64,000 bases of DNA from Ignavibacteriota bacterium (GTDB lineage Bacteria; Bacteroidota; Ignavibacteria; UBA10030), in the NCBI GenBank assembly GCA_963701295.1, contig OY969585.1:2144001-2208000 (forward strand), written 5' to 3'. The notes below the pieces were generated by a model. That model made no database searches. It saw only the letters and a list, made by a program, of their open reading frames with translations, and was not told where the DNA came from. The position numbers and the translations under genes were made by a program. Position 1 is the stretch's first letter; each line of letters begins with the position of its first letter. Shown one piece after another: positions 40,304 to 41,399 of this stretch.

Positions 40304-40695
40304 GGTACCAACTTGGCACCTTAAAGAGAGGCGAACATTCCAAATACCTCCCATTTGCTTTTACAGAGCAAGGTATTGCGATGCTTTCCGGTGTATTAGG
40401 CAGTCCACGCGCCGTACAAGTAAATATTGCGATCATGAGATCGTTTGTAAAATTACGGCAGGTATTAGCGACGCACAAAGATCTAGTACGGAAGCTGGAA
40501 GAAATGGAAAAGAAATACGACGCACAATTTCAGATAGTTTTTGATGCGATCAGGCAGGTTCTTGCTCCTCCTGAAAAACCCAGACGCGAGATCGGATTTC
40601 GGGTAAAAGAACCTATTGTACGATACAAAACGAGAAAGAACCAAAAAATGATGATTCGACCACCCCAGTCCTGCGGACTTCCCCTCCTCACTTGA
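40300..40695 (+). pseudogene. 5'-truncated ORF6N-type DNA-binding protein
   Basis: In-frame [48 protein letters not shown]-terminus absent. Confidence 0.85.
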
Positions 40696-40808
40696 GGAGG
40701 GGTGTAGGGGTGGTGACTTTACTGCAATGAGTTCTTGCCCTCCCATAGTAAAACAAGTATATTTAAGGTAAGAAAAATCCCGCACCAGCCGTAATTACCA
40801 CAGGGGAT
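40656..40808 (+). repeat. Direct repeat copy 1 (palindrome + promoter + 42-nt conserved block)
   Basis: CCCCTCCTCA-CT-TGAGGAGGGG, TTGCCC-N17-TATATT; aligns with 41255-41399. Confidence 0.9.
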
Positions 40809-40858
40809 TTCTTTTTCTTTATCGCAATGCGCCAAATAATTAATTCGGAACTTTAACG

Positions 40859-41230
40859 ATGGGAATTATTTATAATCGTCCGAGACAAAAGCGATTACGA
40901 CAACATCTGAGAAACACTGCATCTGAAGCGGAGCGGCTGCTTTGGAGTTCATTAAAGGGGAGCCAAATGCTAGGATATAAATTTCGCAGTCAGCAAGGTA
41001 TCGAACAATATGTTGTAGATTTTTATTGTCCCGCAAAAAAAGTTGCTATCGAGATTGATGGAGAGACACATTGGACTGATCAGGAACAAAAAAGAGACCG
41101 TGAGAGGCAATGCTATATCGAAGCATTGGGTATTCGGGTACTGAGATTTACAAATGACGATGTTTATACAAATAAAGACGGTGTATTGAATACGATCTTT
41201 GCAGTCTTAGAAGGACAAGAAGAGGAATGA
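40859..41230 (+). CDS. DUF559/Vsr-like endonuclease-domain protein
   Basis: LRN..SEAERLLW, YKFRSQ..I..YVVDFYC, IEIDGETH, GIRVLRFTN. Confidence 0.92.
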   Translation: MGIIYNRPRQKRLRQHLRNTASEAERLLWSSLKGSQMLGYKFRSQQGIEQYVVDFYCPAKKVAIEIDGETHWTDQEQKRDRERQCYIEALGIRVLRFTNDDVYTNKDGVLNTIFAVLEGQEEE

Positions 41231-41254
41231 ATAGCGTTGAGATATTTCCATTTA

Positions 41255-41399
41255 TCGACCACCCCTTTCTCCCCTCCTCATATGAGGAGGGGTGTGGGGG
41301 TGGTGGCTTCAGCGAAAAACATCTCTTGCCCTCCGATGCGGAATATGATATATTTATGGTAAGAAAAATCCCGAACCAGCCATAATTACCACAGGGGAT
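41255..41399 (+). repeat. Direct repeat copy 2
   Basis: CCCCTCCTCA-TA-TGAGGAGGGG, TTGCCC-N17-TATATT; 40/42 identity of the 3' block with copy 1. Confidence 0.9.

Follow-up and report, generated by a model that had tools for sequence, protein, structure and literature searches.

Why should two consecutive nuclease genes on the chromosome of an Ignavibacteriota bacterium each stand behind an almost identical stretch of DNA? An earlier note on the segment analyzed here (64,000 nucleotides of contig OY969585.1, assembly GCA_963701295.1; hereafter the window) had read the two direct repeats as a duplicated unit of GC hairpin, promoter and pseudoknotted RNA that would control the nucleases, or else as an integrase-free cassette array. 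The repeats themselves are located as claimed: the 42-nt blocks, at 40767-40808 and 41358-41399, are identical but for two positions, the boxes TTGCCC-N17-TATATT precede both genes (40735-40763 and 41326-41354), and the GC palindromes at 40681-40702 and 41271-41292 fold far better than shuffled sequences (z -4.3 and -6.4).

On the forward strand the locus opens with a diverged promoter (TTGCTT-N17-TAGATT; 39864-39892), which in an alignment with congeners matches the module boxes and lacks the 42-nt block, in front of a truncated gene for a REP-associated tyrosine transposase (RAYT, or TnpA-REP; 39923-40303) that carries subclass 2.4 motifs and whose homology to full-length copies stops at 40299. 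A deletion has joined this stub to the 3' remnant of an ORF6N-domain gene (40300-40695), thereby removing the module that congeners have between the two genes. The first GC hairpin (40656-40716), the predicted sigma-70-type promoter of module copy 1 and its 5' leader (40764-40808, a tail variant without ATG) lead to a gene for a DUF559 (Vsr-like PD-(D/E)XK) nuclease (40859-41230; PF04480, E 4e-31). This gene is followed by the second GC hairpin (41255-41309), the predicted promoter of module copy 2 and a leader (41355-41421), in which a Shine-Dalgarno-like GGGGA (41394-41398) is followed, after 6 bases, by the ATG (41405) of a 31-codon frame. The frame closes at 41500, one base ahead of the next gene. 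At 41441-41468 lies a double-foot GTAG...CTAC REP palindrome of the RAYT, of the kind given in the subclass description (PMC6006769). The gene itself encodes a stand-alone HNH endonuclease of a widespread family (41502-42083; HNH_5, E 7e-5, below the curated cut-off). Behind this array, on the same strand, lies variable defence-like cargo (42257-47453) coding for a 465-aa protein with no match in Pfam, NCBIfam or PADLOC, a split, frameshifted SNF2 helicase, a NOV_C-domain protein and a D12 adenine methyltransferase. Further along the window, a tyrosine recombinase, unknown ORFs and a DnaB-like helicase (54183-61552; named by eye) likely form a small integrated element.

The earlier note had treated hairpin, promoter and block as one unit; promoter and block do hold together across the genus, while the hairpin is a companion of DUF559. 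Within the class we compared 26 DUF559 loci (14 genomes): a CCC...GGG hairpin lies no more than 200 bases from the gene at 22 of them, mostly on both sides, and none was found in a control window further upstream of DUF559. In this set the module adjoins only the window's own DUF559 gene and is missing from the other 25 loci. Since DUF559 is flanked in this way throughout the class and the window hairpins sit at -178 and +43 relative to it, we regard them as DUF559's own pair. A hairpin, devoid of a U-tract, is found upstream of 7 of 35 module copies. The loops on the two sides of DUF559 genes (window 40656-41309; L252-L277) often match, like Ssn-SRM and RAYT-REP pairs, and a solo hairpin of this type at 35065-35085 adjoins neither a DUF559 gene nor a module. 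Among the titles and abstracts searched in the open-access literature, none describes hairpins of DUF559 genes.

The boxes of the module belong, on statistical grounds, to the dominant promoter class of this genome, and the module therefore carries a predicted promoter. Sequences of the form TTG[CA][CAT]N-spacer-TATA[TA]T are matched 172 times in the genome at a spacer of 17, versus 43-94 times at each of 11 other spacers (12-16, 18-23); 113 of these 172 matches are intergenic (6-32 at the other spacers), and 65 lie within 200 bases of an ORF on the same strand (2-10 at the other spacers). To this extent the idea of self-contained expression cassettes has held up. From copy to copy the -35 and -10 boxes hardly vary, and the spacer drifts. 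The GGT of the first proposed stem falls 4-6 bases past the -10 box, where conservation is 62-73%, and invariance begins at the next A (tabulated on 26 of the 33 alignment rows). By general sigma-70 spacing we take this first invariant A to be the likely transcription start, which would place the starts near 40770 and 41361, behind the first bases of stem 1, so that most of the 5' arm of that stem would be untranscribed.

Most full copies continue with the GGGGA, 6 bases and an ATG, but what begins at this ATG is a short frame of variable length, not the gene itself. The 16S tail of the organism carries the anti-Shine-Dalgarno sequence, and the Shine-Dalgarno spacing in the genome peaks at 5-8 bases, a range that includes the 6 bases of the module. 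A ribosome-binding site is likely the simplest reason for the conservation of GGGGAT. The leader frames range from 8 to 81 codons and abut the following start in 2 of the 30 copies with a detected tail, window copy 2 being one of them; with the frame stopping beside the next ATG in so few copies, we rejected a conserved leader peptide or translational coupling.

A sequence-only model of the module, with which the best 50 candidates per genome were scored, gave 45 matches, all of them within the genus (13 of 16 genomes) and not one in 70 further genomes of the family; many of the assemblies are incomplete. This genome has four block copies, two in the window and two elsewhere (C1:99k and C1:1047k). 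A class-wide DNA search of 300 genomes returned four weak matches of 19-26 bases outside the genus, to the promoter part alone, and in the family search other genera were matched solely through the REP. A metagenome pattern scan added 19 stretches of the same kind, and nine metagenome loci were dropped as repeats of loci already included. The module is thus a genus-restricted, predicted promoter-plus-leader unit of about 90 bases that stands in many copies before very different genes. Titles and abstracts searched in the open-access literature yielded no description of the module or of promoter-attI satellites, and no paper pairing a RAYT with DUF559.

What stands behind these copies is diverse. 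An intact nuclease gene (DUF559 or HNH) stands behind only 6 of the 35 copies; RAYT follows seven and ORF6N four, and genes for Avs2 (over cut-off), an HD protein, a KAP NTPase and a SIR2 protein follow others. With 730 matches the HNH family is widespread, and the module is missing from 55 of 56 HNH-homolog loci. Control of the nucleases by an RNA in the type III toxin-antitoxin sense, as had been proposed, does not fit this distribution. Between two modules, a gene with a LacI-type sugar-binding domain (L037:7660-8499, L039:9780-10619) runs in the opposite orientation, so that the module also bounds genes that it cannot transcribe. In other phyla (L111, L142, L144, L145) an attC-like sequence, recognized by eye, lies directly before the start codon of HNH homologs, and there the HNH gene may travel as an integron cassette.

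The flanks of the module combine freely. Among the 35 copies, the downstream classes ORF6N, HNH, DUF559a, DUF559b and D7 each occur behind two different upstream classes, and the upstream classes (RAYT tail, hairpin, ORF6N tail) are joined to downstream genes in various combinations. The window shares with L039 728 bases, comprising module, REP and HNH and beginning one base before the module, and with L062 a unit of 713 bases that consists of DUF559 and both flanking modules. Locus L042, in turn, has the ORF6N tail of L062, one module and then the sequence that L062 carries behind its next module; the DUF559a unit is cleanly missing. Together, the free combination of flanks and this module-bounded loss support the idea of an integrase-free cassette array that the earlier note had considered. 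Over 16 loci, 57 of 183 long-alignment ends fall inside a module versus 22.9 expected from coverage, a descriptive figure because the pairs share ancestry.

These patterns are best explained, and on balance probably so, by the module serving as a shared crossover point at which single-gene units are swapped in a defence hot spot. Recombination between two module copies would remove or bring in the gene that they enclose, as has been described for the PeSL promoter cassettes of T4-type phages, whose recombination makes mini-circles (PMC2839356; PMC4122927), and each incoming gene would arrive with its own promoter. Several observations weigh against this reading. The call on alignment ends is weakened by the non-independence of the pairs and by the fact that alignments naturally run through a shared repeat; stem 2 of the block is paired in 94% of cells, and the changes that keep it are mostly C-to-U wobble; and the hairpin differs from that of the PeSLs. 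Moreover, homologous recombination alone cannot explain how the module arrived at unrelated loci: at pckA and bshA it is missing in this genome and present in congeners, and at the pst locus it is present in 2 of 13.

Because homologous exchange cannot account for presence and absence at pckA, bshA and pst, we infer a transposition step, and RAYT is the candidate agent. Seventeen of the 35 copies touch a RAYT gene, 10 following a RAYT tail and seven preceding RAYT. A full-length congener protein has the motifs NH[IFV]H, WQ and YIxNN of subclass 2.4 (its match to the NCBIfam RAYT model is below the cut-off of that model), and, as in this subclass, a double-foot REP lies beside the gene and REPs lie inside it. 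The module would likely have begun as the 5' region of a RAYT unit, and RAYT would likely have carried it to new loci. In its strong form this explanation posits a non-autonomous element, with the module as its left end, that RAYT, an HUH enzyme, mobilizes; REP-guided single-strand cutting at C|T and strand transfer would put module and passengers at gene junctions, and homologous crossover would be secondary. TTG has a C directly in front of it in 42 of 43 module copies versus 56 of 172 genome promoters of the same class, and several alignments begin exactly there; TnpA-REP cuts at C|T according to a description of group 2 and 3 enzymes, which are other than subclass 2.4 (PMC8266576). Taken together, the conserved C and this cutting are suggestive only, since the C may simply belong to the inherited element. 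The deletion that fuses RAYT to ORF6N in the window (40299/40300) falls exactly between an in-gene REP arm and a palindrome inside ORF6N, but the junction has one T more than a clean C|T join. Furthermore, the right end of the module is ragged, neither a target duplication nor a second fixed end was found, a REP stands behind few copies only, the RAYT of the window is truncated, and the other RAYT of this genome (C1:489k) is without a module. We consider RAYT as the principal mover of the module rather unlikely and retain the crossover point as the preferred reading, with transposition as the step that would have supplied new loci.

Could an integron integrase be the agent instead? We called attI and attC sites with our own motif patterns, read from arrays beside intI, rather than with IntegronFinder. 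No paired attC or attI pattern was present in the window island or in the other loci with type A or B copies (22 loci scanned), and the integron integrase is therefore not the agent there; a 23rd locus (L049), with a copy of the sister form that we call type C, has many attC sites. The picture at type C copies is a different one. An attI-like core lies 150-380 bases downstream of all 17 (14 by pattern, three by a variant), and an attC pattern follows in 14 of them, in arrays with typical cassette spacers. Behind the copies at C1:99k and C1:1047k come a REP, an HNH remnant and then an 80-base segment that ends in a GTTAG core, and in L192, L194 and L201 this segment lies directly upstream of integron integrase genes, the usual position of attI. 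No intI match was found in 16 type C loci of 4-18 kb. An integrase over the TIGR02249 cut-off is encoded in 13 of the 16 genus genomes, and that of this genome is about 60% identical to the clade adjoining the type C attI. The type C form is likely the predicted promoter of gene-capture sites that are devoid of an integrase of their own.

Over 174 bases, window copy 2 with its REP and the 5' end of HNH aligns at 72% with the attI-linked copy at C1:1047k, and the tail of that copy keeps HNH codons. A RAYT-module-REP-HNH unit like window copy 2 would likely have captured attI inside the HNH gene and so given rise to promoter-attI platforms. As most type C copies are without the REP-HNH remnant, an order is suggested in which such a unit came first, attI capture followed and deletion came last.

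The integrons of this genus show further features. On the chromosome of this genome (G000:C1) we counted 106 paired attC-like sites in about 12 clusters (among them 225-245k, 1156-1163k, 1797-1809k, 2373-2440k, 2465-2495k, 2820-2833k, 3134-3172k, 3439-3457k and 3531-3565k) and one integrase over the cut-off (3566721). The sequence adjoining this integrase recurs, complete or in part, at the head of seven distant clusters or sites; the whole makes up a multi-locus integron. At least three integrase clades (L183-L201; 52-99% identity) exist in the one genus, each with its own attI; the attI of clade A has tandem TTAGGCTGC...GCAGTCTAA palindromes. At the pst locus L280, an HNH remnant stands before a third type of attI, as found beside the integrases of L190 and L199, without a type C promoter.

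If the module is chiefly a promoter at a crossover point, is there still a function for the block? The proposed pairings GGTAA/TTACC (stem 1) and ATCCC/GGGAT (stem 2) do exist in interleaved order in both window copies, the two substitutions lie outside both stems as had been noted, and only about 0.1% of dinucleotide shuffles of the 42-mer reproduce such 5+5 pairing; the same complementarity turns up in nine of the 172 fifty-base stretches that follow promoters of the same class, both window copies included. A conserved pseudoknot it is not. Shuffled sequences fold as well as the block does (z 0.57 and 0.08 with ViennaRNA, whose model leaves out pseudoknots). In 33 copies stem 1 was 73% and stem 2 92% paired, with all five measures inside the range of shuffles; in a 43-copy alignment, from which four truncated copies had been dropped (left out of alignment A3, kept in A2) and to which 14 type C copies had been added, the values were 68% and 94%, again at shuffle level. 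Both stems are intact in 6 of the 43 copies. Stem 1 is fully paired in six and has its first pair broken in 27 of 41. Neither alignment contained covariation above shuffles, RNAalifold predicted no pair on the copies, and Rfam returned no family at the gathering score (seven weak matches, none on the block). The pseudoknotted leader or small RNA of the earlier note has accordingly been set aside. Three other candidates were also rejected: an HDV-like ribozyme and a Xer/dif-like site (both compared by eye), which lack the needed P1.1 pairing and the palindromic core, respectively, and whose positions vary, and an IscB/HEARO-like guide RNA, for which the HNH domain matched the IscB model weakly (E 2e-4; cut-off 175 bits) and against which it counts that the module does not travel with the HNH gene.

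Stem 2 is the better preserved of the two proposed stems, being fully paired in 32 of 43 copies, and its 3' arm overlaps the Shine-Dalgarno-like sequence. One may picture the block as a regulatory leader, either a repressor site AATCCC...GGGAT, for which the protein of the ORF6N genes, regular members of the arrays, would be a candidate, or an RNA hairpin by which the ribosome-binding site is concealed and the expression of toxic defence genes kept low, the module having spread through safe, controlled expression. Of the changes that keep stem 2, 20 cells are one-sided and 19 of these are C-to-U substitutions giving a U-G pair, but C-to-T is the commonest transition and keeps its G partner by default. 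The covariation score is reached by 300 of 500 shuffles, the stem is worth merely -5 kcal/mol, and three RAYT-driving copies are entirely without its 3' arm. At most, the sequences would allow a weak RNA hairpin over the ribosome-binding site, and we consider a regulatory leader of this kind improbable.

Still less probable, in our estimation, is neutral debris, that is, a RAYT 5' region duplicated in tandem and decayed, with copies that play no role in gene exchange. The RAYT and ORF6N genes of the window are indeed broken, partial module copies exist, and the tail of the module resembles the RAYT start context CGCCAATG. Decay does not agree, however, with -35 and -10 boxes that stay nearly invariant while the spacer between them drifts, nor with the intact defence genes, Avs2 among them, and the attI arrays directly downstream.

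A pseudoknotted RNA that would hold the downstream nuclease in check by binding it, in the manner of a type III antitoxin, is barely credible: the intact stems of the window copies and one compensatory change in stem 1 elsewhere (L062:2225) speak for it, but conservation largely refutes it, the 5' arm falls where variation is greatest, 4-8 bases past the -10 box and, by general sigma-70 knowledge, before the presumed start, neither tandem repeats nor a terminator precede the gene, and the module is missing from nearly all of the HNH loci and from all of the other DUF559 loci compared.

Setting these alternatives beside the preferred crossover point, one may combine exchange, RAYT and the integron into a single scheme: an integrase-free chromosomal array in which a domesticated RAYT cuts the C|T edge of the module and captures anti-phage genes behind a ready promoter, and which has seeded promoter-attI landing pads filled by one distant integron integrase. 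As a whole this scheme is speculative and, in our view, unlikely; the sequences of the copies, their distribution, their flanks and the loss of the pseudoknot are established, and transcription, crossover, RAYT mobility and use of the integrase are our inference. The preferred reading, if right, would extend PeSL-type shuffling of promoter cassettes from T4 phages to a bacterial defence island, provide a concrete case in which to ask how domesticated RAYT transposases serve their host, and trace how an integrase-less cassette array obtains its own promoter and attI. The genes behind the module are candidate new anti-phage genes, as their neighbors include Avs2, SIR2 and KAP-NTPase genes. The confinement of the module to one genus among the genomes searched limits the reach of these conclusions.

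How does the module compare with known systems? In type III toxin-antitoxin loci, a terminator lies between the RNA repeats and the toxin gene. No terminator-like site was found on the + strand between 39800 and 42300, and thus none between block and gene. With those loci (PMC3401426) the module shares the order of promoter, short non-coding stretch and nuclease gene, but it has one block per gene (the two window copies are 591 bases apart with a gene between them) and lacks tandem RNA repeats, a conserved pseudoknot and a fixed partner protein; nor did Pfam, NCBIfam or PADLOC return a type III toxin family match. The module is not a type III antitoxin. The DUF559 gene is reminiscent of Ssn, a nuclease gene with SRM hairpin repeats on both sides (PMC11893778): both nucleases are small and single-domain, and the gene of each lies between hairpin repeats of its own. 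The likeness is one of layout; Ssn is a GIY-YIG and DUF559 a PD-(D/E)XK nuclease.

Like CALINs, type C copies head attC arrays with no integrase nearby (PMC4889954; PMC9024848; 10.1101/2022.09.11.507474; 10.1101/2025.06.18.660453). In the accessible portions of the literature CALINs are treated as lacking Pc, with attI mostly undetectable (PMC4889954; PMC9024848); such arrays are cut off from Pc and attI, whereas those of type C retain both an attI-like site and a predicted promoter of their own. The two window copies differ from integrons and CALINs alike in having neither attI nor attC. The RAYT itself resembles the TnpA-REP/RAYT subclass 2.4 (Bertels group 4) of the REPtron accounts in its NH[IV]H, WQ and YIxNN motifs, its in-gene REPs and the adjoining GTAG...CTAC REP (PMC6006769); a promoter module common to passenger genes is not described in the parts of these accounts available to us. 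A similar, unresolved link between RAYT and diversification has been proposed for prochlorosins (10.1101/2020.03.09.984088).

The closest comparison is with the PeSL (promoter-early stem-loop) elements (PMC2839356; PMC4122927). Mini-circles and promoter activity have been reported for PeSLs; the promoter of the module is a predicted one. PeSLs have a Shine-Dalgarno sequence and ATG at their 3' end, and the corresponding GGGGA and ATG of the module open short variable frames. Unlike PeSLs, the module belongs to a defence hot spot of a bacterial chromosome and is tied to RAYT, and its stem-loop is optional (7 of 35 copies), belongs to DUF559, is without a U-tract and is not scored as a terminator. 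Because the terminator stem-loop that marks a PeSL is lacking, we do not file the module as one, although it would work like one: both are repeated intergenic units of about 100 bp with a sigma-70-like promoter in a hyperplastic region, and in both the genes between two copies are gained or lost from one copy to the next, as L042 and L062 illustrate for the module.
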